From a virus (taxonomy: Duplodnaviria > Heunggongvirae > Uroviricota > Caudoviricetes): a stretch of DNA of 64,000 bases. Positions 1,205 through 11,320 of the stretch are shown piece after piece. Below the pieces are notes generated by a model. That model was not told the origin of the DNA and searched no databases. It worked only from the letters and a program-made list of their open reading frames with translations. How positions within the stretch are numbered: the first letter of the stretch is position 1; each line of letters opens with the position of its first letter. The stretch is from IMG/VR virus record IMGVR_UViG_2695420859_000012. The stretch is one strand, 5' to 3'. Made by a program: the position numbers and the translations under genes.

Positions 1205-1396
1205 TTAAAGAGAGGTGTACAGCTCGGTATTCAGACCAGTCCACTGACGGCCAACGCCGACAACTTCACCGATACCTTTGTCTTCACCCAATTTGTTTAC
1301 TTTGATGCCAACGTACCCAGGCTCAACACGATCGCAGCCTGTAAGACCCATTGTGCAAACAGCAGCCACGATCACTGCCAGTAAACCTTTCTTCAT
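1205..1396 (-). CDS. Small lipoprotein, function unknown
   Basis: 63 aa; signal peptide with lipobox LTGC (MKKGLLAVIVAAVCTMGLTGC). Confidence 0.5.
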   Translation of the reverse strand: MKKGLLAVIVAAVCTMGLTGCDRVEPGYVGIKVNKLGEDKGIGEVVGVGRQWTGLNTELYTSL

Positions 1397-1399
1397 TAC

Positions 1400-1600
1400 T
1401 TACTTCCCCTTCGAATTAATTAGTGACTTCAGAAAGTTACGACCAACATTAAAGCCGATAACAGGAGCGCCAAAAGCAACAATGATTCCAAGCATTACGG
1501 CAATATCGCTTTTAGCCGAGATCAGCGACGGAACCAGCAAACAGTAGATGAAAACTACAGATATACCTGTAGCCACTGCCATCAGATAGAGTTTGATCAT
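1400..1600 (-). CDS. Small hydrophobic membrane protein, function unknown
   Basis: 66 aa, two hydrophobic segments; abuts the lipoprotein gene. Confidence 0.4.
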   Translation of the reverse strand: MIKLYLMAVATGISVVFIYCLLVPSLISAKSDIAVMLGIIVAFGAPVIGFNVGRNFLKSLINSKGK

Positions 1601-1690
1601 GTGTTTTCCTATGTGGCTATTGTGTGTAGATGGTGAGTAAGTGTTTATATATTTTCAAGGTATAAAGGCGTCCATTCGGACGCCTGAAAA

Positions 1691-4030
1691 TTAATCTTCT
1701 AATTCATCTGTCGGTGATGTCTTCTCGCGCCTGTCATCTATTGCCTGTAACGCAGCAATGATTTCAGCTAATGGCTTCTCCCGGTACATCTCGACGATCT
1801 GTGATTTGGTGTATTTCTTCTCGCCAATTTCCACACGCCCGCTGGCGCTCTTGGGCAGGTATCCTTCCTCCAGCATGTATTCAACCAGAGACTCGACGAC
1901 GTCCAGCCCGCGAGTCGGGTCGAAGTAGAATTTCCATGAGCATTTGCCAAACGGAGGCGCGACTTTGTTTTTAATGCACTCGGCGCCAACGTCCTGTCCG
2001 ATCTTCTCTTTGCCATCCTTCATGACGGATGCACCCAGACGGATGCGCACCGACGCGTAGAACTTCGGAGAGTCGCCACCCGGAGACGTAGTCGGATCGC
2101 CAAACATCACACCAATTTTGGTACGCACCTGGTTCAAGAAGATGATGCACGCGTTGTACTTACGCGCCCAAAGCGCCAGAGTAGGGAAGTTCGCACTTGT
2201 CGCGCGCGCCAGCGCCGTGTTGTCGTTCATGTTCAGCTGATCTTTGTCTTTCGCAGTGCCTTCTGCCATCTTGTCGAACTTCTCAGCCTTCGAGTTCGGA
2301 ACCATCGACGCCAGAGAGTCGGCTACGATGCAGATAGGGGCTGTTTCCGGAATAAGCTCTTCGTCGCGCACCAGCTTGAGGATTGTGCCGATCAGCTCTA
2401 CGGAGTCTTCGAAGGTATCCGGCTGTTTGTAGACCCACTGACCGTCATCCTCATCTGCGTTCAGGCCATTGGCTACAGCCAGGCCAACGTCAAAACTGTT
2501 TTCATGATCGAGGAATACCGCCAGACCATCTTGTTTTTGAGCGGAGATCATCGCTGCTGTTGCAAGGAATGTGTTGTGGCTGATAATCCCGTTAGACCAG
2601 AAAGAGTGTGTTTCCGGCATCGCTACGTCGAACGTTGGTGCTTCACCTTCCTCAATAGCCACGACTTCGTCGTAGAACAAGTTAGAGCCAATTACCGCTG
2701 CCAGTTGTGCAAACAGATGCTCGTTAAAACGATTCTTTCTGCCAATGAAGGAGACATAGATTTCTCGCAGTTTGTCTATTCCGACACGATCGCCGCGGCC
2801 AATAACGTGGTCTACCAGAGCGTAGTCTTCACGGGTGGTCTTGGTGAGCGACTCGTAGAGTGATTTCACTAAGCCGCTGATGTGCGGAACATAGCCTGAG
2901 TAAGTGCGGTCAAAACCAATGTCCCGTTTGGTTGCCACTGATAAACGTGCCGGAGATTCGAAACCAATCGTTGACAGAAAAAGGTCGTAATTAGAGCCAC
3001 TGAATGACAGCCGGTAATATGTATTTTCATAACCCGCGACGTGTTTTTCAGAGATAGTTGACGTAATCCCCAGATTCAGGAGCATGAGGCGAATTTGCTG
3101 TAGCAGCAGCCCACTCGCGCTCACAACCTCAATGCAGCGACCATCATTGACGTGGCATTCCAGCTCAAAGTAGCCGCGAAGGAATGCAATTTGAGCCTCG
3201 CTATTGGCGCGACGCACACTCAACGGAACCTGCTTGCCAGCAGCTTTCTCATACTCCAGACCATATTCTTTAAAAAGCAGCGAACGCACCTCTTTGCTAA
3301 ACAGCACATGGTCTTCCGAGCCGTTATGTTTTCTCGTAACTGGCATCTTGTCTGATACCAGCGAAATGAGGCGGTAGTACTCATCCTTGATGAAAGGATC
3401 TGTGTTAGAAAAATTCACTGAATTTTCAGAGGCGACGTATCCGTCAGCAATTAAATAGCCCATCAGTTTTGCGATATTGGCATCCAGGTGCTGATCGCCG
3501 AATTGATGTGTGCCAACCATTGAAGGAATCGTGTCGCCTACACTGATTTTTTCAGCATGTCGCCAGACGACATTACCTAAGTCGTCAACCACACGGATTG
3601 GGTGACGGAACGTAGCCTCGATATAACCGCCTGATGCCAGCTTAATACGCTTGAATTTGCGACGGTTGTTCCATGTCAGGTGTGAGGTCTTCTCTATCAC
3701 GCCATTTTCATTGATGAGTCCAACGTTATGCTCTACATCGCGAGTAGTGCATGTCGCTTTGTACCCTTCAATCTCAAACAACTCTTTCACTGTTACCATT
3801 CCACGCTCCGTCAGCAGCATGGTGTCTGCGGTAACACATTTCCCTGCACTTGGAGGACCGAATACTTCGACGATACGACCACATGGGAAGCCGCCATCGT
3901 AACGACCAGAAATAGCTTTGTTTAACGGTGGAAAGCCTGTATCAATCCAATGAGTTACTTTCTGAATTTCGTCGTTGCTACCGATTTTCTTTTTCAGAGC
4001 AAGTGCCAGTGCGGATTTTCCTTTTGCCAT
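1691..4030 (-). CDS. recA: RecA-family recombinase interrupted by an intein in the Walker A P-loop
   Basis: N-extein ends GRIVEVFGPPSAGK, C-extein resumes TFLATAAM... and contains IIFLNQVRTKIGVMFGDPTTSPGGDSPKFYASVRIRL, closely matching bacterial RecA as recalled; exteins total 357 aa. Confidence 0.85.
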   Translation of the reverse strand: MAKGKSALALALKKKIGSNDEIQKVTHWIDTGFPPLNKAISGRYDGGFPCGRIVEVFGPPSAGKCVTADTMLLTERGMVTVKELFEIEGYKATCTTRDVEHNVGLINENGVIEKTSHLTWNNRRKFKRIKLASGGYIEATFRHPIRVVDDLGNVVWRHAEKISVGDTIPSMVGTHQFGDQHLDANIAKLMGYLIADGYVASENSVNFSNTDPFIKDEYYRLISLVSDKMPVTRKHNGSEDHVLFSKEVRSLLFKEYGLEYEKAAGKQVPLSVRRANSEAQIAFLRGYFELECHVNDGRCIEVVSASGLLLQQIRLMLLNLGITSTISEKHVAGYENTYYRLSFSGSNYDLFLSTIGFESPARLSVATKRDIGFDRTYSGYVPHISGLVKSLYESLTKTTREDYALVDHVIGRGDRVGIDKLREIYVSFIGRKNRFNEHLFAQLAAVIGSNLFYDEVVAIEEGEAPTFDVAMPETHSFWSNGIISHNTFLATAAMISAQKQDGLAVFLDHENSFDVGLAVANGLNADEDDGQWVYKQPDTFEDSVELIGTILKLVRDEELIPETAPICIVADSLASMVPNSKAEKFDKMAEGTAKDKDQLNMNDNTALARATSANFPTLALWARKYNACIIFLNQVRTKIGVMFGDPTTSPGGDSPKFYASVRIRLGASVMKDGKEKIGQDVGAECIKNKVAPPFGKCSWKFYFDPTRGLDVVESLVEYMLEEGYLPKSASGRVEIGEKKYTKSQIVEMYREKPLAEIIAALQAIDDRREKTSPTDELED
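2573..3838 (-). mobile_element. Intein (about 422 aa) with LAGLIDADG homing-endonuclease domain, inside the recA P-loop
   Basis: Begins with Cys immediately after GPPSAGK and ends ...IISHN followed by Thr; LAGLIDADG-type blocks LMGYLIADGYV and FLRGYFELECHVNDG. Confidence 0.8.
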
Positions 4031-4032
4031 GA

Positions 4033-4305
4033 TCAGGCTCCTTTTGTTTCGTTGATTCGTTTTAAAGCGGCGGATTCATCGAATACAATCGCATCGTGGT
4101 TAAGGAGTCTGGATACACGAGCGAGGATTTTTACGACCTGCTCGCTGACTAATCCAAACTCGCGATCTGTCGCTTTCATTCCGGCAGCGCCTAGAATTGA
4201 CGGCAGTGCGATGACAGCGTACTCACCGTGATAAAAGACAATCTCTTTTGCCAGTTGGGCAGGGGTGGTTGTAGCGCCATTAATAATTGATTTAAGCATT
4301 AGCAA
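4033..4305 (-). CDS. Hypothetical protein
   Basis: 90-aa ORF packed between exonuclease and recA genes. Confidence 0.4.
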   Translation of the reverse strand: MLMLKSIINGATTTPAQLAKEIVFYHGEYAVIALPSILGAAGMKATDREFGLVSEQVVKILARVSRLLNHDAIVFDESAALKRINETKGA

Positions 4306-5294
4306 TACCTTTCGAATGGAAGAACATACACTTCAAGGTCTTCAAGGAACGAACGGAAATTCAGCTCGTAGCACAGTTGCTCGAATGCTTTCACGTCACG
4401 ATTGCCTTTGATTGTTTCGATTTCGGTAGGCGGAAACTTCGTCTCAATCAGGTTCATTAGCGTGATGTTTCTCTTGAACGCTTCGAGCATTCGACAGCCT
4501 GTTTTCTCGTTGAAGGCATTCTTCGCTAGTTTGTTGAAGGCGGTCTTATGGCGTCCTTTGTCAACCACGATTGAGCCGTCGTTGATGCCGCGTACCATCG
4601 TTGCGACACTTCCCCATTCATGCAGCAGCTCTTTCGCACCGCCAGCACCAATGCCACCAACACCGCTAATGTTGTCCGATTTATCGCCTTGTAATGCTTT
4701 TGCTTCCAAAAATGCGCGAGGAGTAGCGAATCCTGTCAGCTCCGCAAATTGCTCAAAATTAACCTGCTTGTTTTTGGCGTCTTCACGCAGGCTTACCCAG
4801 CTTACGTTTTCACGAACTAACTGAAGCCAGTCGCTATCGCCTGTTAACAGATAGATGTGTTCAACGGTTGGCTGCGGTGCCATGCGGGATACCAGCAGCC
4901 CGGCCAGATCATCCGCTTCTGCATCTTTTGCAATGAGTTGGGTAACTCCAAGCGCGGTCATCATTTTGAGGATGTATGGCTTCTGGATAGCAAAGCCTTC
5001 CTTCATCTTTTTCATATCAGGATCGTCGTCGCGATTTGCTTTGTAGTCCGGGTAAAAGTCGCGACGCTTGTCACTAAATCCATCCCAAAGAATCATAGGT
5101 CGGGCATGGAGGATGGAGGCATAACGACGGACGTTCTTAACAAAGCCGAAAGCAGCCTGTACTTCCATTTCGCCGTTGTGCAATTTGTCAGATTGTTGGT
5201 GGTAATAACCCAGGCTATTGCCATCTACGAAGAGATAATTCACCGGTACATTCCTTCCAAAAAGTAAGGCGTCCGTAGACGCCTTACTGGTCAC
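4299..5294 (-). CDS. 5'-3' exonuclease / flap endonuclease (FEN, RNase H-like)
   Basis: AKDAEADDLAG acidic motif and H3TH-like GDKSDNISGVGGIGAGGAKELL. Confidence 0.75.
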   Translation of the reverse strand: MTSKASTDALLFGRNVPVNYLFVDGNSLGYYHQQSDKLHNGEMEVQAAFGFVKNVRRYASILHARPMILWDGFSDKRRDFYPDYKANRDDDPDMKKMKEGFAIQKPYILKMMTALGVTQLIAKDAEADDLAGLLVSRMAPQPTVEHIYLLTGDSDWLQLVRENVSWVSLREDAKNKQVNFEQFAELTGFATPRAFLEAKALQGDKSDNISGVGGIGAGGAKELLHEWGSVATMVRGINDGSIVVDKGRHKTAFNKLAKNAFNEKTGCRMLEAFKRNITLMNLIETKFPPTEIETIKGNRDVKAFEQLCYELNFRSFLEDLEVYVLPFERYC

Positions 5295-5303
5295 GTAATG
5301 GGA

Positions 5304-6332
5304 TTACAGAGAGTCCAGCTCTCTCAGTAGGTCATCCAGACCTTCATCTTCCGTCGCAGATGCGGCTGCTACAGATGTCGTTGCGACTGCTTCAGACTCT
5401 TTGACTGATACTGCAACGGCAGCGGGACTTGCTTCTGGTTTAAATTCAGTTTCAACGGCACGGAGGATTTCTTCATCAACCAGACTGGTTGGTTCAGAAG
5501 CTGGGGTATGAGCGGTAGCTACAGCAGTCGCACCCTCCGTATGACCAGTGACAGAGCCAAATCCAGGTAGTGCCGCAGCCGATGTTTTCGCGGTTGAGGA
5601 AATTGCTGGTGCAGATGCTGCGGCAGTTGGTGCAGCGATGCCAATCAGACGACCCATAGTGCGAACTGTCGACAGAAGACGAGTTTCATCAGCCTGATTT
5701 GCGTATGCGATCAGATCATGCTGGGTATTCCAGAATTTATCTTCGATATCGCCTTTGTAGACTTTACGCTTAGGCGAGACGTCATATTTGGTATCGCGAC
5801 CAGAGCCAGTACGTTTAATCAGGAATGCGTAGCCTTCCTCTTTGCTCAGTGGATTGCCGATATCATCAGCGATGTCTTCGGTGATTGCTTTGCAGATATC
5901 ATCGAATACAGTAGACGGCAGCTCGATTAACTGGCATTTCTCAGCATCTGCGAAATCCTCACGAGCAGAAAGAATGCCGTTGACCAGGTAGCGAGGAGTG
6001 GCACGCATTTGACCGATGCGTTCTTCCATTGCTTTGTTACCCTTGTGACGAGCGCGACCTTCCATCACCATTTCGCATAGCTGACAAGCGCGACCGTGAG
6101 TATGTTGCTCACAAATATAAGCGTTGGTTGCTTCTTTACCTTCCTCGTTCTGATACTTAACGTAGTGCATACCGAAAGTCTGGAAGAACTTACCGTTTGG
6201 GTCGTCTTTATTCGGGAAGATGCGGATATAGTTGACGCCGTCTTTTAAGCGAGTCAGATCAACGTTGTTACCACGTTTGGCGGCAATGTCTTCACGAGTT
6301 TTGTTAAGCAAATCAAGTAATGTCTTAGACAT
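5304..6332 (-). CDS. Single-stranded DNA-binding protein, T4 gp32-like
   Basis: Recalled similarity to T4 gp32 around the zinc-binding region (IRIFPNKDDPNGKFF...CEQHTHGRACQLCE); Ala/Ser/Thr-rich acidic C-terminal tail. Confidence 0.6.
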   Translation of the reverse strand: MSKTLLDLLNKTREDIAAKRGNNVDLTRLKDGVNYIRIFPNKDDPNGKFFQTFGMHYVKYQNEEGKEATNAYICEQHTHGRACQLCEMVMEGRARHKGNKAMEERIGQMRATPRYLVNGILSAREDFADAEKCQLIELPSTVFDDICKAITEDIADDIGNPLSKEEGYAFLIKRTGSGRDTKYDVSPKRKVYKGDIEDKFWNTQHDLIAYANQADETRLLSTVRTMGRLIGIAAPTAAASAPAISSTAKTSAAALPGFGSVTGHTEGATAVATAHTPASEPTSLVDEEILRAVETEFKPEASPAAVAVSVKESEAVATTSVAAASATEDEGLDDLLRELDSL

Positions 6333-7007: not shown

Positions 7008-8177
7008 TCACGTCTTAATAGTTTCTGCTACGTCGGCTAATATCGCTTCTAGTCGTTCTCCCTCTTCAGGTCTGAAGTAAAGAATGTTGGGGTTAAACCC
7101 GTAAAAGACAGTAACGTCAAGGTCTGGAAGATACTCCTTCCTGCCGACCAAATCGGATGGCTTGTTTTTGTTGTTAAACAATGAAGTTGCCCGGCTGCCA
7201 CACGTCAGCACATAGGTCGGACGCACCAGATTGATCTCTTCACGCATAAAGTCGGTGAACTGGCCGATCTCGTCTTTGGTGTAGTCTTTTTCTTTGTCTT
7301 TAACCTTCTTGCAAACACCTGTGACATAGAGATCGCCCATGCGTAAATCTCCAGCCGTCAATAGCTTGGCCTTAAAGTCGTCGTATCCGTTCTCCATAAA
7401 GTAACCGGTTCGAGCATCATTGCCGTTCGCATTGTCCAGAATGATCATGATTTTCGGCTTAATACCAATGCTGGGGCGGATTAGTTCATCACCTAAGCCC
7501 ATTTCAGCCGCCATCCGCGTCATGAGTACGTTAATTTCAGCCGAACGTTTGGGGTTCATCTCAAACGGACGTGAGGCTTTAACTGCGTCTATGACAAGGT
7601 TTCCCATCAATTCAGCCTGGTCGCGTAGGCGCTCTGGATCAGTTGCTGGCAGACTGCCTGGCTCGATGGATGCAAACGCCCCTACTTTTTGCAGCGATTC
7701 GCGCACTCGACTATTACAGGCACGTTTCTCGACAGCTTCTTCGAATTGCGCCAGTGACTCGAATTTGCCGCCAACTTTTTCTCGCGCTCTCATGATGGCT
7801 TGGCAGCCATTCTCAGAACACCCCTTCACAGCAGAGAAGGGCGCATACAGCACCTGGCTGCCATCTTCAAGCGTGCGGATCTCGATTCGGTTAGATGACA
7901 CGTTAACGTCTGGTGGCAATACGCGAATGCCATAGGTCAGCGCATCTTTAACCAGCCCCTGGTGTTTATCTTCGCCAAGAATAGTGAGAGCAGCAGCGAA
8001 AAACTCTGCGGGATAATGAGTTTTCAACCACATAGATTGATAACTGATTAAGGAGTAAGCAACAGAGTGTGATTTGTTGAAGGCATACGCGCCGGATTTC
8101 TCAAACATATTCCAGATTTCTTCGGCTCGTTCGTGCGTCAGGCCATTGCTCTCTTCGACAACACCGGTAATTTTCAT
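7008..8177 (-). CDS. dnaE: DNA polymerase III alpha (DnaE-type), C-terminal fragment
   Basis: ERAEEIWNMFEKSGAYAFNKSHSVAYSLISYQSMWLKTHYPAEFFAA matches the DnaE finger region as recalled; GAGG 7 nt before the ATG, which overlaps the HNH stop (ATGA). Confidence 0.8.
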   Translation of the reverse strand: MKITGVVEESNGLTHERAEEIWNMFEKSGAYAFNKSHSVAYSLISYQSMWLKTHYPAEFFAAALTILGEDKHQGLVKDALTYGIRVLPPDVNVSSNRIEIRTLEDGSQVLYAPFSAVKGCSENGCQAIMRAREKVGGKFESLAQFEEAVEKRACNSRVRESLQKVGAFASIEPGSLPATDPERLRDQAELMGNLVIDAVKASRPFEMNPKRSAEINVLMTRMAAEMGLGDELIRPSIGIKPKIMIILDNANGNDARTGYFMENGYDDFKAKLLTAGDLRMGDLYVTGVCKKVKDKEKDYTKDEIGQFTDFMREEINLVRPTYVLTCGSRATSLFNNKNKPSDLVGRKEYLPDLDVTVFYGFNPNILYFRPEEGERLEAILADVAETIKT

Positions 8178-8908
8178 GCAGTCACCTCATCAATCTTCAC
8201 GAACTCATACCCATTGGAGGCCAGCCAGTTCCGTTGGCGCTCCCAGCTCCATATCTCTTCACGCATTTCACTATGCAGGCGAATGTGGGCGTCTTCTGGA
8301 AGTGCTACAAGATTCCCAGGGGCGTTATCTATCGTATCGCGGTTAATATGGTGGACATGTTCATCGTCACGTAGCTCCCGACCGAGACGTTCTTTCGCTA
8401 TCAATCGATGAACGTATTCGTATTGCGAAACGCCATTGTTACCAACCAGCTGCATCATGTAGCCGTTGGTTTTTACGATGATGCCACCTTTGTAGTTGTT
8501 CGCTTCTTCTCCGATCTTTCCGCGTTTGGCAGCCGCCAGCTTTTCCTTCGTCTCCGCGCGGATTGTTCTGCCGGTTAGCTTTTTCGAAACGGTGGCCACT
8601 CGCTCATCGATATCAGCACGCAGACCGGCATTCCACGAGGTTTTCCCATACATAGGGTTGCCAGTGCCAGTCCGGGCTTCGGAGAGACGCTTCATACGTT
8701 CGTCATTATTTTTGTTTTTGCCACGATTCCAGGCTGGGGTAGCGGAGATCCGCGCGCTTCCGCGCCTGATCCCCCATTTGGCTAATAAGCGGTCAATATT
8801 TGCCTTGCTGCAACCAGCTTCGGCGGCAATGTCTTCTTTTCTCATCAGGTCAACCATGTAACGCTGACGTAACCATTCTTCTGTGATTTTGTACTTCGTA
8901 CTCGGCAT
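8174..8908 (-). CDS. HNH homing endonuclease inserted within dnaE
   Basis: HNH motif EHVHHINRDTIDNAPGNLVALPEDAH; separate frame and start. Confidence 0.8.
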   Translation of the reverse strand: MPSTKYKITEEWLRQRYMVDLMRKEDIAAEAGCSKANIDRLLAKWGIRRGSARISATPAWNRGKNKNNDERMKRLSEARTGTGNPMYGKTSWNAGLRADIDERVATVSKKLTGRTIRAETKEKLAAAKRGKIGEEANNYKGGIIVKTNGYMMQLVGNNGVSQYEYVHRLIAKERLGRELRDDEHVHHINRDTIDNAPGNLVALPEDAHIRLHSEMREEIWSWERQRNWLASNGYEFVKIDEVTA

Positions 8909-8956
8909 TTCTAAGACTCACTAAACAAATTGTTTTCTTATCTTATAAATTAATTC

Positions 8957-11320
8957 TCAAATATCGAAGCTCGTTATGTCGGCATTTATTGCCATTGCTT
9001 CGGCATAAGTGCGACGCTCACCATCAGCACAAAGTAGGCGTGCTGCTTTATGGATTTTTCTCGTAGAACCATCATCCAGTGACACTGTCACCCAGCCTTC
9101 CTCCGCTCGCTTAATGAAGTCGCCGCCAATGGATTTCATTTTCTCCATATCTTTTTTCCCGATCGCTTTCCTGACCGAGTCTGCTTCCGCCATTGAGAAC
9201 CCCGCCAAGATTCGCGTAGCAGCCATGATCTGTTCCTGATAAATCAGAACTCCGTTTGTGTCGCGAGAGATGTCGTCCAGCATTGGGTGTAAGGAATGTG
9301 GGGCCATGAAGCCTTTGGCCACGGACACATAATCGTCCAACATGCCGGATTGAATCGGGCCAGGTCGGAAGAGCGCAGTTGTAGCGACGACCGTTTTAAA
9401 GCTCATTGGCTCAATTCCACCACCTAAATCTTTAAGCAGCTTGCGCATTGGGCCTGATTCAAGCTGGAATACGCCCTGTGTATACCCTGCAGCAAAACCA
9501 TCCAGCACCTTGCGATCTTCAAGAGAAATGGCATCAAGATTGATATCTTCACCTGTGTTCTCTTTTATGTAGCGTTTTGCACTATCGAGCAAATCGAGAG
9601 TTGCCAGGCCAAGCACGTCCAGCTTAATTAGGCCCATAGCCTCGCAGTAACGCTTGTCAAATGCGATACAACGCGCGTCACCACGGCGTTCAACCGGTGT
9701 ACGTTCTGTCAGAGGAACACCTGCTACGATCATCCCTGCCGCATGTCTACCAAAGCCACGCATAAGGCTTTGTAACTTGCAGGCTGCATTGAATGCATCA
9801 GGATATTTTGTTGCGTATTTGTCGAGACTTGCCAGTTGTTCGCGCAGCTCTTCCAATGGAAGGCTATCATCCTCGACGTTCTTCAGTTCTTTTGATACCG
9901 CCATATCTGCGGACTCCACACCATAAATACGAGCGGTGTCACGTAGTGCAGAGGCTGCGCCCAGGTAGGTGAAGTTCGGAATGCCTGCAACGTAATCTTC
10001 GCCGTAGCGTTCATTCAGATACTCGATCACCTCATGGCGACGTGCCTGGCTGAAGTCCAAGTCCGCATCCGGCAAGTCGAGACGCTCAGGGTTGATGAAA
10101 CGCTCAAACAGAAGACCGTGACGGATTGGGTCGACGTTGGTTATGCCTATGCACCACGCCACCAGAGAACCGGCAGAGGAACCACGACCAGGCCCGACAG
10201 GAATGCCAGTTTCACGGCTGTGATTCATCAGATCGCGTACCATCAGGAAGTAACCACAAAATCCCAGGCGAGTAAGCGTGTCCATTTCGTACTTAAGTCG
10301 CTCAACATAAACCCTGTTCTCAGAAGCAGGTGGTGTGTATCCAAACTCTTTTGTGGTAAGACGTTTACGCAGCCCTGCAACAGCCAGTTTCATCAGCGTT
10401 GCAGGTTCGTCGTCTGCCATCTTGGGCAGTGCTGGTGGCAATTCATGCCAGCGCCATGTGCAGGCATCGATAATGGAGTCCTGCGTTGTTGAGGCCATTG
10501 CAGCTGTTACCGGCACATCCATGCGAACGGAGAAGGCTTTAAGCGCCTCAAGGAGATGGCGACGACCATTGATGGCGTTATCTCGCTGGTGGGGGATACG
10601 CAGACGATGCGGCTGGTCGATTTTTATGTTGTTCGTAACCATGTGCGCAATGTCTTTAATGTCTGCATCGTCGATCGATTCGTAATAAGCGGGATAGAAC
10701 GCTACTGGCTCTATTTTCAGTGCGCTGGCGACTTTCATCGCCCGGACGTTAATCTGGTCGTAGAATGGGGTAGGGTGCGGATAAACCACACTATAGAAGT
10801 TGTCTTTTCCACCCGCTGTAATCAGTGTGCTTATGATTTTTGCAAAATCGTTGCGTTGGAACACGCTACCGATGTCGGAAGTAAGCAGGATGATGTTGCC
10901 TTTGGCATATGTAGAAACCAACTGTTCGAGCGAGAGACGCGGTACAAAGTAGAACTGTTCTCGTGTGTTGGCCGCCGTCATTAGTTCGCAGATGTCGCGA
11001 TATCCTTTCTCATTTTTAATTAGAGCGGTAAACGAGTAGTTACGTCCTCGCTCTAATGATTCCATACATCTCATAGATTCTTTAGCAAGTTTAGCCCGGT
11101 GCTCGTATGTGGGATCATCAACAATGTTTAGTTTCACACCACAAATAACCGCCATGTCGTCACCAGCGGCACGTTGTAGTGGAATAACGCTCGCAATATT
11201 CATGCTATCTGCTGAAATTACAGCGGTGTAGCCAGCTTCTCTGGCAATCTTCACCGCGTTTTCTGCTTTTAGAGCCGACTCCCCAAGTGAGAAGTCAGTT
11301 CGAACCATCAGTGCCTTCAT
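8957..11320 (-). CDS. dnaE: DNA polymerase III alpha (DnaE-type), N-terminal part
   Basis: GYFLMVRDLMNHSRETGIPVGPGRGSSAGSLVAWCIGITNVDPIRHGLLFERFINPERLDLPDADLDF matches the DnaE catalytic core as recalled; ORF stops 44 codons after the point where similarity to uninterrupted DnaE ends. Confidence 0.85.
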   Translation of the reverse strand: MKALMVRTDFSLGESALKAENAVKIAREAGYTAVISADSMNIASVIPLQRAAGDDMAVICGVKLNIVDDPTYEHRAKLAKESMRCMESLERGRNYSFTALIKNEKGYRDICELMTAANTREQFYFVPRLSLEQLVSTYAKGNIILLTSDIGSVFQRNDFAKIISTLITAGGKDNFYSVVYPHPTPFYDQINVRAMKVASALKIEPVAFYPAYYESIDDADIKDIAHMVTNNIKIDQPHRLRIPHQRDNAINGRRHLLEALKAFSVRMDVPVTAAMASTTQDSIIDACTWRWHELPPALPKMADDEPATLMKLAVAGLRKRLTTKEFGYTPPASENRVYVERLKYEMDTLTRLGFCGYFLMVRDLMNHSRETGIPVGPGRGSSAGSLVAWCIGITNVDPIRHGLLFERFINPERLDLPDADLDFSQARRHEVIEYLNERYGEDYVAGIPNFTYLGAASALRDTARIYGVESADMAVSKELKNVEDDSLPLEELREQLASLDKYATKYPDAFNAACKLQSLMRGFGRHAAGMIVAGVPLTERTPVERRGDARCIAFDKRYCEAMGLIKLDVLGLATLDLLDSAKRYIKENTGEDINLDAISLEDRKVLDGFAAGYTQGVFQLESGPMRKLLKDLGGGIEPMSFKTVVATTALFRPGPIQSGMLDDYVSVAKGFMAPHSLHPMLDDISRDTNGVLIYQEQIMAATRILAGFSMAEADSVRKAIGKKDMEKMKSIGGDFIKRAEEGWVTVSLDDGSTRKIHKAARLLCADGERRTYAEAMAINADITSFDI

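Follow-up and report, generated by a model that had tools for sequence, protein, structure and literature searches.

The locus examined here raises the question of how a RecA-like recombinase can be encoded with its ATP-binding loop split by a long insert, and of how that insert came to be there. It lies in the window, by which we mean the whole 64,000-nucleotide stretch of phage DNA analysed (IMG/VR record IMGVR_UViG_2695420859_000012). A sequence-only reading of this DNA had proposed a RecA-family protein interrupted at the Walker A Lys/Thr junction by an intein of about 422 residues with endonuclease blocks, and these proposals are borne out below. The explanation that we consider very probable is a mobile class-1 intein with a two-motif LAGLIDADG endonuclease, inserted at the Walker A Lys/Thr junction of an SSU5-type phage-plasmid recombinase. 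The coordinates of the features discussed are collected in Table 1.

Table 1. Features of the interrupted recombinase gene, in window coordinates
Feature	Position	Strand	Description	Basis
Precursor ORF	1691..4030	(-)	779 aa, 86.5 kDa, RecA-like recombinase with intein	ORF list, Pfam, PHROGs
N-extein	3839..4030	(-)	aa 1-64, C-terminal end is Walker A GPPSAGK	
Walker A GPPSAGK	3839..3859	(-)	aa 58-64	
Intein	2573..3838	(-)	422 aa, 47.5 kDa, Cys65..Asn486 of precursor (1266 bases)	
Hint domain, N-terminal part	3509..3838	(-)	intein aa 1-110, block A Cys1	
Block B T76-x-x-H79	3599..3616	(-)		motif position
Nested LAGLIDADG region	2684..3508	(-)	intein aa 111-385	
LAGLIDADG motif 1 LMGYLIADGYV	3434..3466	(-)	intein 125-135, acidic D132	
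LAGLIDADG motif 2 FLRGYFELECHV	3149..3184	(-)	intein 219-230, acidic E227	
Hint domain, C-terminal part	2573..2683	(-)	intein aa 386-422, blocks F and G	
C-extein and stop codon	1691..2572	(-)	aa 487-779, first residue Thr487	
First 139 nt of C-extein	2434..2572	(-)	Cyrano/CMS type, travels with intein	mismatch positions

The recombinase and its interrupted P-loop

The precursor matches the Pfam RecA family (PF00154; 1.5e-36, over the gathering score); among the PHROGs, phrog_9666 matches it over its full length and phrog_97 corresponds to a UvsX-like recombinase. Joining the exteins in silico (64 + 293 residues) gives a 39.0-kDa protein of 357 residues, the size previously claimed for the product, in which GPPSAGKT is restored. 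This spliced sequence aligns with E. coli RecA in a single piece (residues 29-316, E 3.6e-32), whereas the unspliced frame gives two alignment pieces with the break at the P-loop, and it lies nearer to RecA than to UvsX (4e-9). With the insert removed, the RecA core is continuous and the Walker A signature GxxxxGK[T/S] is intact, as in the RecA/RadA superfamily of ATPases. The RecA-family host proposed earlier can be specified further as a phage-plasmid type: with the bacterial RecA equivalog model TIGR02012 (cutoff 325.3 bits) the spliced sequence reaches 156.5 bits, and a Pfam search found PF00154 alone and no RecA_C domain. Judged by sequence, this is a RecA-like recombinase of phage-plasmids and not an orthologue of cellular RecA. 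The recombination module to which its gene belongs also encodes a gp32-like SSB and a 5'-3' exonuclease. A search for a group I intron in the neighbouring split polymerase gene (Rfam, E <= 1) found none.

The insert begins with Cys65, directly after GPPSAGK, and ends with His485-Asn486, followed by Thr487, exactly at the junction and with exactly the length that had been read from the letters. Thr487 is at once the Walker A threonine and the +1 splice nucleophile.

Splicing domain and nested endonuclease

Three profiles recognize the splicing domain: Pfam Intein_splicing (PF14890; 2.1e-11, over the gathering score) and, at the two ends of the insert, NCBIfam intein_Nterm (TIGR01445; 34.6 bits, cutoff 24.5, precursor residues 65-147) and intein_Cterm (TIGR01443; 17.8 bits, cutoff 15.6, precursor residues 466-487). 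Block F reads TFDVAMPETHSFWSNG and includes D404 and H411; block G reads IISHN and includes H421 and N422. When homologs are aligned, residues E396, T402, D404, P408, S412 and F413 hardly vary, and Cys1, the terminal His-Asn and the +1 nucleophile pattern are common to all aligned homologs (28-46% identity). An AlphaFold model of the intein (pLDDT 84.2, pTM 0.87) has β-strands spanning residues 7-107, and a Foldseek search with it gave the TliVMA intein as the best match (PDB code 7qss; E 3.8e-21, TM 0.71), followed by PI-PfuI (1dq3), PI-PkoII (2cw7) and PI-SceI, all of them full-length endonuclease-bearing inteins. The sequence-only reading had made its case depend on alignment with intein blocks A, B, F and G; profile HMMs, the homolog alignment and the fold search all recover that alignment, and the four blocks are likewise found by motif position. 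To judge from its residues, it belongs to the class-1 inteins, and none of the canonical catalytic residues is missing from the insert.

Between the two parts of the Hint domain, Pfam LAGLIDADG_3 (PF14528) matches precursor residues 279-356 (2.4e-17, over the gathering score), and both of the endonuclease blocks named earlier, LIADGYV and FLRGYFELE, were located. The predicted structure is in keeping with the αββαββα pseudo-dimer of monomeric, double-motif LAGLIDADG endonucleases, with two helices (residues 120-131 and 213-227) that have D132 and E227 at their acidic ends and are each followed by strands; structures of I-DmoI match the model (Foldseek E about 3e-4, target-normalised TM 0.52-0.62). 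Motif 2 reads FLRGYFELEC, with a cysteine at the usual glycine position, and this ELEC ending in place of the usual acidic-Gly could make for weaker endonuclease activity. The atypical motif is one reason for considering an intein that still splices but whose endonuclease is dead, which would persist vertically, spread through general recombination among SSU5-like elements and stand late in the homing cycle. A related intein, P0007 in a cellular RecA, is visibly without the first LAGLIDADG motif, which makes such decay conceivable, but D132 and E227 are both retained here; the population data bear further on this alternative.

Empty sites, distribution and spread

Phages CMS-2020a and SSU5 carry alleles without the intein (357 and 358 residues), which read GPPSAGK/TFLATAAM (the slash marks the insertion point; the junction region of the CMS-2020a protein is GPPSAGKTFLATAAM). 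They provide the comparison with intein-free alleles that had been suggested as a check, and both have precise empty sites. The N-extein DNA of the window is 100% identical to that of CMS-2020a up to the AAA codon of Lys64, the DNA breakpoints against CMS-2020a and SSU5 coincide exactly with codon boundaries and exactly 1266 bases are missing; after splicing in silico, 343 of the 357 residues agree with the CMS-2020a protein. The empty-site DNA reads ...GTATTCGGTCCTCCAAGTGCAGGGAAA/ACGTTCCTTGCAACAGCAGCG... in CMS-2020a and GGTAAA/ACCTTTTTGGCAACGGCT in the SSU5 type, and the uninterrupted site is present in 112 plasmids. The element is thus an in-frame insert within a conserved motif, and homologous alleles exactly lack it. 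The six intein-bearing alleles examined all share only the junction sequence GGGAAA/../ACATTCCT, their backgrounds otherwise differing.

Over the length of this gene, the window and the SSU5-like phage-plasmid pSJC33-2 of E. coli have the same sequence (100% identity). Among 802 plasmids in PLSDB that bear the recA-like gene, ~240 (~30%) carry the intein and about 70% are without it. No E. coli chromosome has the intein; of 121 places none was chromosomal in E. coli, and SSU5-like phage-plasmids or phages were the carriers of the gene throughout. Carriage is 0/63 in Yersinia and 1/49 in Salmonella. PGAP/RefSeq labels most copies 'LAGLIDADG family homing endonuclease', a mislabelling that masks the recombinase.

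These labels might suggest a non-splicing insert that either inactivates the recombinase or leaves an ORF serving as an endonuclease only, and the allele of one 62-kb E. albertii plasmid, with a frameshifted C-extein and an unannotated CDS, would agree with this. Against it, the 2340-nt frame is unbroken in hundreds of plasmids, the splice residues are all kept even in the distant homologs described above, dN/dS in Hint-N is 0.03-0.10 and some NCBI copies are named 'intein-containing recombinase RecA'. We regard a non-splicing insert as highly improbable. The endonuclease region has a dN/dS of 0.13-0.21, with no frameshifts or stops among the five intact intein-bearing alleles compared, and together these ratios imply that purifying selection acts on the intein. 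The strong purifying selection that the exteins show (dN/dS 0.01-0.03) was weighed as evidence that intein-bearing genes must splice and was rejected, because the exteins diverged (dS reaching 1.75) long before the intein spread (~0.09). Since most extein divergence predates that spread, extein conservation is no evidence for a working recombinase from intein-bearing genes.

The mobile, endonuclease-bearing intein that we favour is reflected in the contrast between insert and flanks. Intein DNA identity is 96.8-99.4% among the compared E. coli, Klebsiella and Enterobacter alleles, 92-94% against E. albertii and 92-100% overall across genera, whereas the adjoining exteins are at 78-88%; between the window and the Klebsiella allele, dS is 0.094 for the intein and 1.75 for the exteins. 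On several backgrounds, identity falls from ~97% to ~80% at positions -6 and +8 of the insertion site, an abrupt drop that is predicted by double-strand-break repair and improbable under random crossovers. Taken together, the comparisons point indirectly to recent, repeated homing of the intein. The C-extein of the window changes in sequence type along its length. Compared with Cyrano, it has zero mismatches from -6 to +139 and about 13% divergence further on; mismatches with SSU5 are numerous until +128 and few beyond, and below window position 2434 the C-extein switches to the SSU5 sequence type. The 139-nt Cyrano/CMS-type stretch is likely to be a co-conversion tract.

The same switch, from CMS/Cyrano type up to +139 nt to SSU5-like beyond, can also be read as mosaicism of the recA-like gene regardless of the intein. 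SSU5-like elements are highly mosaic, so general homologous recombination could shift the intein between alleles without the endonuclease, and a frequency of ~30%, near neither fixation nor loss, with the low carriage in Yersinia and Salmonella, would also suit a dead enzyme. This alternative has to accommodate the purifying selection on an unbroken endonuclease region and the sharp transitions at -6/+8 on several backgrounds, and we consider it unlikely. Because the element is polymorphic in about 800 sequenced plasmids from Enterobacteriaceae that are common in the clinic, and has clean empty sites and short tracts of probable co-conversion, it is a convenient natural system in which to measure how inteins home from one phage-plasmid to another within the same cell of a genetically tractable host.

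Proposed mechanism and relation to known inteins

The analysis shows the anatomy of the element, its precise empty sites, its fold and, at the level of populations, the signature of horizontal spread; from these we infer splicing and DNA cleavage as real activities. In the mobile-intein model, the 86.5-kDa precursor would be translated with its ATP site broken. An N-S acyl shift at Cys65 would form a thioester that is handed to the hydroxyl of Thr487, Asn486 would cyclise with assistance from His485 and an O-N shift would release the 39.0-kDa recombinase of 357 residues, with GPPSAGKT restored, and the free 47.5-kDa intein. The latter, with D132 and E227 at its LAGLIDADG helix ends, would then cut the intein-free alleles of relatives that share the cell, in or close to ...GGGAAA/ACGTTCCTT..., and repair off the intein-bearing copy would install the intein together with a short flank. 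A further role is conceivable but doubtful: the endonuclease may act as a weapon against competing SSU5-like phage-plasmids and/or conditional splicing may gate the recombinase at the plasmid-to-lytic switch. If the endonuclease were such a weapon, cutting the recombinase gene of a rival would damage or convert that rival and drag in donor flank, amounting to marker exclusion, and this could in part account for the mosaicism of the recombination module and for the presence of the intein in only 30% of the elements.

The intein itself is already known. It is the RecA-c2 intein of Topilina, Novikova, Stanger, Banavali and Belfort (2015, Nucleic Acids Res 43:6631, PMC4513877), which their Table 1 lists as RecA c2 (65-486) with hosts in E. 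coli (strains including MS 145-7), Enterobacter and Salmonella; residues, position at the end of the P-loop and host genera agree with the window, and the MS 145-7 plasmid carries the intein of the window at 99.9% DNA identity. The discovery value is accordingly small, the intein, its boundaries and its P-loop site having been published in 2015 and Lys/Thr inteins of the P-loop being a textbook case (the 'classic' P-loop insertion of Kelley, 2016). Our additions are the host, a phage-plasmid recombinase instead of cellular RecA, and the homing signature. The words phage and prophage are absent from the RecA-c2 paper (PMC4513877), whereas the gene described here is borne by phage-plasmids and phages; our search for literature linking the intein with SSU5, pLF82 or phage-plasmids found nothing relevant, and we likewise found no published test of splicing or endonuclease activity of the RecA-c2 intein. 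What the literature presents as the first intein of E. coli, located in RecA, is carried by SSU5/pLF82-type phage-plasmids and absent from the cell's own recA, so its distribution and any regulatory role are to be read differently.

Such a role is known from elsewhere. Regulation has been reported for the P-loop intein of Pyrococcus horikoshii RadA and for mycobacterial DnaB inteins, and the window intein could likewise have been co-opted as a conditional switch (responding to ssDNA, redox or temperature) and kept for its benefit, which would be compatible with mobility. The Pho RadA mini-intein (point c1, PDB code 4e2t) shares the insertion point at the end of Walker A, Cys1 and the +1 threonine, and its splicing domain superposes on our model (Foldseek E 5e-5). 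Placement in the P-loop would make the precursor ATPase-dead, and Cys30, Cys228 and Cys235, which the intein has besides Cys1, might conceivably act as a redox trap. However, no sequence feature favours regulation, the intein-free majority of related elements marks the intein as dispensable and the pattern of spread is that of a selfish element. Topilina et al. (2015; PMC4513877), whose work on the E. coli precursor consisted of modelling only (data not shown), report moreover that no model of it gives the RadA-type extein-intein lock. We judge co-option as a switch to be quite unlikely. The RadA element also differs from the intein described here: it is a mini-intein of 172 aa that lacks an endonuclease and belongs to a hyperthermophilic archaeon. 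Similarity between the two is low (about 21% over 124 columns); Topilina et al. (PMC4513877) inferred independent invasions.

Full-length homologs are the helicase intein of Staphylococcus phage Twort ORF006, its relatives in Herelleviridae helicases and the RecA intein of Bacillus phage fHSPT3, which are 32-34% identical to the window intein across all 422 residues. They too are phage-borne, have a LAGLIDADG domain and interrupt Walker A at Lys/Thr(Ser), as ATNGGK/C..NHN/T in Twort and KPGGGK/C..NHN/S in fHSPT3. Their host proteins are different (in Twort an SF2-type helicase) and so are the phages, which are Gram-positive myoviruses, and these inteins are too diverged from that of the window for recent transfer. 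When the intein by itself was compared with proteins through a word index, 14 proteins came up, enough to reveal the shared insertion site.

The RecA inteins of M. tuberculosis (PI-MtuI, point a) and M. leprae (point b) have Cys1 and a nested LAGLIDADG-type endonuclease, as here, and the Mtu splicing domain (2imz) matches the model (E 8e-4). Unlike the window intein, they lie at residues 252 and 206, in the monomer-monomer interface of chromosomal actinobacterial RecA; with other insertion points and only generic Hint and endonuclease similarity, they were rejected as relatives. The best whole-molecule structural matches, TliVMA (7qss), PhoVMA (7qst), PI-PfuI and PI-PkoII (TM 0.57-0.71), share the Hint domain with a nested double-motif LAGLIDADG region, but have archaeal hosts and 15-22% identity, a kinship at the level of the fold only.

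The intein and its empty sites

In the single-frame precursor, the Walker A motif GPPSAGK (aa 58–64) is followed directly by Cys65 and His485-Asn486 directly by Thr487; these junctions delimit an insert of exactly 422 residues, between exteins of 64 and 293 residues (357 in sum). Recomputation of the ORF and residue positions gave the same coordinates, lengths and junction residues as the sequence-only reading. Pfam RecA (1.5e-36, two stretches), LAGLIDADG_3 (2.4e-17, aa 279–356) and Intein_splicing (2.1e-11, spanning aa 73–486) matched the precursor above their gathering scores, and the NCBIfam models intein_Nterm (aa 65–147) and intein_Cterm (aa 466–487) exceeded their cutoffs; partial long matches involved models for intein-containing RFC, aIF2, GyrA, DnaB and V-ATPase. 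The canonical intein residues are complete and both endonuclease motifs are present (see table).

Features of the recombinase gene, its intein and neighbouring genes (window coordinates, or intein residues 1–422 where so marked)
Feature	Position	Strand	Remarks
Precursor ORF	1691..4030	-	779 aa, single frame
Intein	2573..3838	-	422 aa, Cys65..Asn486
Block A	intein Cys1
Block B	intein Thr76-x-x-His79		ATFRHP
Block F	intein Asp404, His411		TFDVAMPETHSFWSNG
Block G	intein His421-Asn422
+1 residue	C-extein Thr
Endonuclease motif 1	intein Asp132		LMGYLIADGYV
Endonuclease motif 2	intein Glu227		FLRGYFELECHV
Stomatin-like lipoprotein, shortened	1205..1396	-	63 aa
90-aa ORF	4033..4305	-	recombination module
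5'-3' exonuclease	4299..5294	-	recombination module
gp32-like SSB	5304..6332	-	recombination module
DnaE-type polymerase III alpha gene	7008..11320	-	split into two ORFs
Polymerase, second ORF	7008..8177	-	389 aa; HHH_6 and C-terminal region
HNH_3/NUMOD3 homing-endonuclease ORF	8174..8908		244 aa, between polymerase halves
Polymerase, first ORF	8957..11320	-	787 aa; PHP, polymerase, finger domains

An AlphaFold2 model of the intein from a ten-sequence alignment (mean pLDDT 84.2, pTM 0.87) has β structure at residues 7–107 and 387–421 and a helical/β middle, with LAGLIDADG helices at residues 120–131 and 213–227. A Foldseek search of the PDB placed whole endonuclease-bearing inteins first [TliVMA (PDB code 7qss; E 3.8e-21, TM 0.71), then PI-PfuI (1dq3), PI-PkoII (2cw7) and PI-SceI] and mini-inteins lower, among them Pho RadA and the splicing domain of Mtu RecA; I-DmoI corresponds to the middle domain. 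By profiles, canonical residues and structural matches, the insert aligns with intein blocks A, B, F and G, and the failure of alignment that the earlier reading had named as decisive against it did not occur; its identification as a LAGLIDADG intein with two endonuclease motifs stands.

The related phages CMS-2020a (357 aa, reading ...VFGPPSAGKTFLATAAM...) and SSU5 (gene 060, a recombinase by annotation; 358 aa, same junction) carry alleles lacking the insert at the Lys/Thr junction. The N-extein DNA of the window is identical to that of CMS-2020a (192/192) through AAA(Lys64), after which the window reads TGT GTT... and CMS-2020a ACG TTC CTT; beyond the intein end (...CAC AAC) the window reads ACA TTC CTT. 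The protein spliced in silico is identical to that of CMS-2020a at 343 of 357 residues and aligns with E. coli RecA in a single stretch (aa 29–316, E 3.6e-32); the unspliced ORF gives two separate alignments, with the break at the P-loop. A 60-nt reconstituted empty site found uninterrupted targets on 112 plasmids (best 59/60).

Relatives and earlier record

Inteins 41–46% identical occupy the same GK/C...HN/T junction in metagenomic RecA-like and true RecA proteins (P0004–P0006, P0008 and P0009 of the protein search), and others, 28–37% identical, do so in P0007, P0012 and P0013. P0007, a cellular RecA with RecA_N and RecA_C domains (locus L012, 3001..5166), lies on a 550-kb contig of MAG GCA_027484465.1; its P-loop intein is 37% identical, with a degenerate endonuclease region that has lost the first LAGLIDADG motif. 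P0014, a 542-aa metagenomic RuvB, carries a P-loop mini-intein at GPPGLGK/C..NHN/T that starts, like that of the window, with CVTADT. Together, these two proteins hint that the lineage has moved between different P-loop ATPases. In the Twort ORF006 helicase (ATNGGK/C..NHN/T) and the Bacillus phage fHSPT3 RecA (GGGK/C..NHN/S), full-length homologs with 32–34% identity lie between the Walker A Lys and Thr(Ser). This junction is the 'classic' P-loop insertion site (Kelley et al., 2016, PMC5050341; Novikova et al., 2016, PMC4760082), as the sequence-only reading had called it.

Table 1 of Topilina et al. (2015; Nucleic Acids Res 43:6631, PMC4513877) gives a RecA intein 'c2 (65-486)' from eight E. 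coli, two Enterobacter and one Salmonella strains. The window intein has the same residues, and strain MS 145-7 of that study has a plasmid bearing it at 99.9% DNA identity (match H103); the intein is therefore not new, belonging to the same allele family at the commonest kind of insertion site. The original finding is real and rightly interpreted, but ordinary. Topilina et al. mention only unpublished modelling of this intein; the word 'phage' appears nowhere in their text and a phage-plasmid location is not stated there. Literature searches turned up no experiment on its splicing or cleavage. What is added here is its genomic home in SSU5/pLF82-type phage-plasmids, precise natural empty sites and a clear population signature of what would be recent homing.

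Probable homing signature and distribution

Six intein-bearing alleles were compared (the window, phage Cyrano, K. pneumoniae CP034047, E. hormaechei AP025825, E. coli CP033097 and E. albertii CP043255). Intein DNA identity is 92–99.8%, against often just 78–88% in the adjoining exteins; between the window and Klebsiella alleles, dS is 0.094 in the intein and 1.75 in the exteins. The junction GGGAAA/intein/ACATTCCT is the sole flank common to all six, each following its own background beyond it, and the +1 codon of the two empty alleles is ACG or ACC. In the window, sequence of CMS/Cyrano type flanks the intein from -192 to +139 nt, and the remaining C-extein is SSU5-like. The dN/dS values are 0.03–0.10 in the splicing domain and 0.13–0.21 in the endonuclease region. 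Taken together, the identities, junction pattern and dN/dS fit the prediction for repeated, site-specific homing that leaves short co-conversion tracts, and they indicate that selection has probably acted on both activities.

The allele of E. albertii plasmid p3RM15112 (CP043255.1, 62 kb; L006, locus 1309..3660) has an intact intein, the most diverged seen (92–94% DNA identity), and a C-extein whose frameshift puts the first stop at codon 615; the locus lacks a CDS annotation. The allele is a decayed recombinase gene that has retained its intein.

In PLSDB the gene occurs on 802 plasmids, 237 of which match the full intein-containing query; the intein alone found 248 plasmids (240 in full). 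Intein and gene counts are 123 and 231 in Escherichia, 71 and 329 in Klebsiella, 41 and 91 in Enterobacter, 0 and 63 in Yersinia and 1 and 49 in Salmonella. The intein is present in 120 of 5,426 complete E. coli genomes; its 121 places there are all plasmid-borne and none chromosomal. On plasmid CP059946.1 (60873..62917; H122), the intein match is broken into two parts spread over 2045 bp rather than 1266 bp, with no gene annotated, which suggests a ∼780-bp insertion within the intein on this one plasmid.

Host protein and gene neighbourhood

The sequence spliced in silico scores 156.5 bits with TIGR02012 (cutoff 325.3) and a Pfam search of the precursor detected no RecA C-terminal domain; by these profiles the host protein is RecA-like and not an orthologue of cellular RecA. 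PHROGs assigns the exteins to phrog_97, UvsX-like recombinase, and the whole protein to a family of its own, phrog_9666, 'unknown function'. RefSeq copies (WP_032328848.1 and many others) are mostly named 'LAGLIDADG family homing endonuclease', the name the NCBI pipeline gives to most, or 'hint domain-containing protein'; the pipeline calls some copies, in RefSeq only certain Enterobacter ones, 'intein-containing recombinase RecA'. This inconsistent annotation conceals the recombinase.

The gene closes a minus-strand recombination module. The window as a whole comes from an SSU5-like phage-plasmid. The gene is 100% identical to that of E. coli plasmid pSJC33-2 (NZ_CP080257.1, 113,446 bp; H14), and the surrounding 3 kb (window 1400..4400) match Escherichia phage Cyrano at 94.8% identity; Cyrano equals plasmid pLF82 (NC_011917) in length.

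On the other flank of the recombinase gene, the stomatin-like lipoprotein gene (276 aa in CMS-2020a, Cyrano and SSU5) is cut short, the sequences parting after ...NTELY. A type I restriction-modification island starts beside it (hsdM end near window 972), continuing in pSJC33-2 with hsdS, a DUF4268 gene and hsdR; the lipoprotein gene therefore seems to be where the defence island inserted.

The split polymerase gene lies 4 kb from the recombinase gene. PhiR41_1 has a single intact annotated gene of 1172 aa, to which the halves correspond as aa 1–782 and 789–1172; the C-terminal region of the second ORF is called uracil-DNA glycosylase in some GenBank records. The stop of the HNH_3/NUMOD3 ORF and the start of the second half overlap, and Rfam gave no group I intron at the split. 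Cyrano, SSU5 and CMS-2020a align without the ∼800-bp insert, and no more than 25 PLSDB plasmids contain it. A free-standing homing-endonuclease gene seems to have split an essential polymerase gene here; some 100 codons around the split are far more diverged than the remainder.
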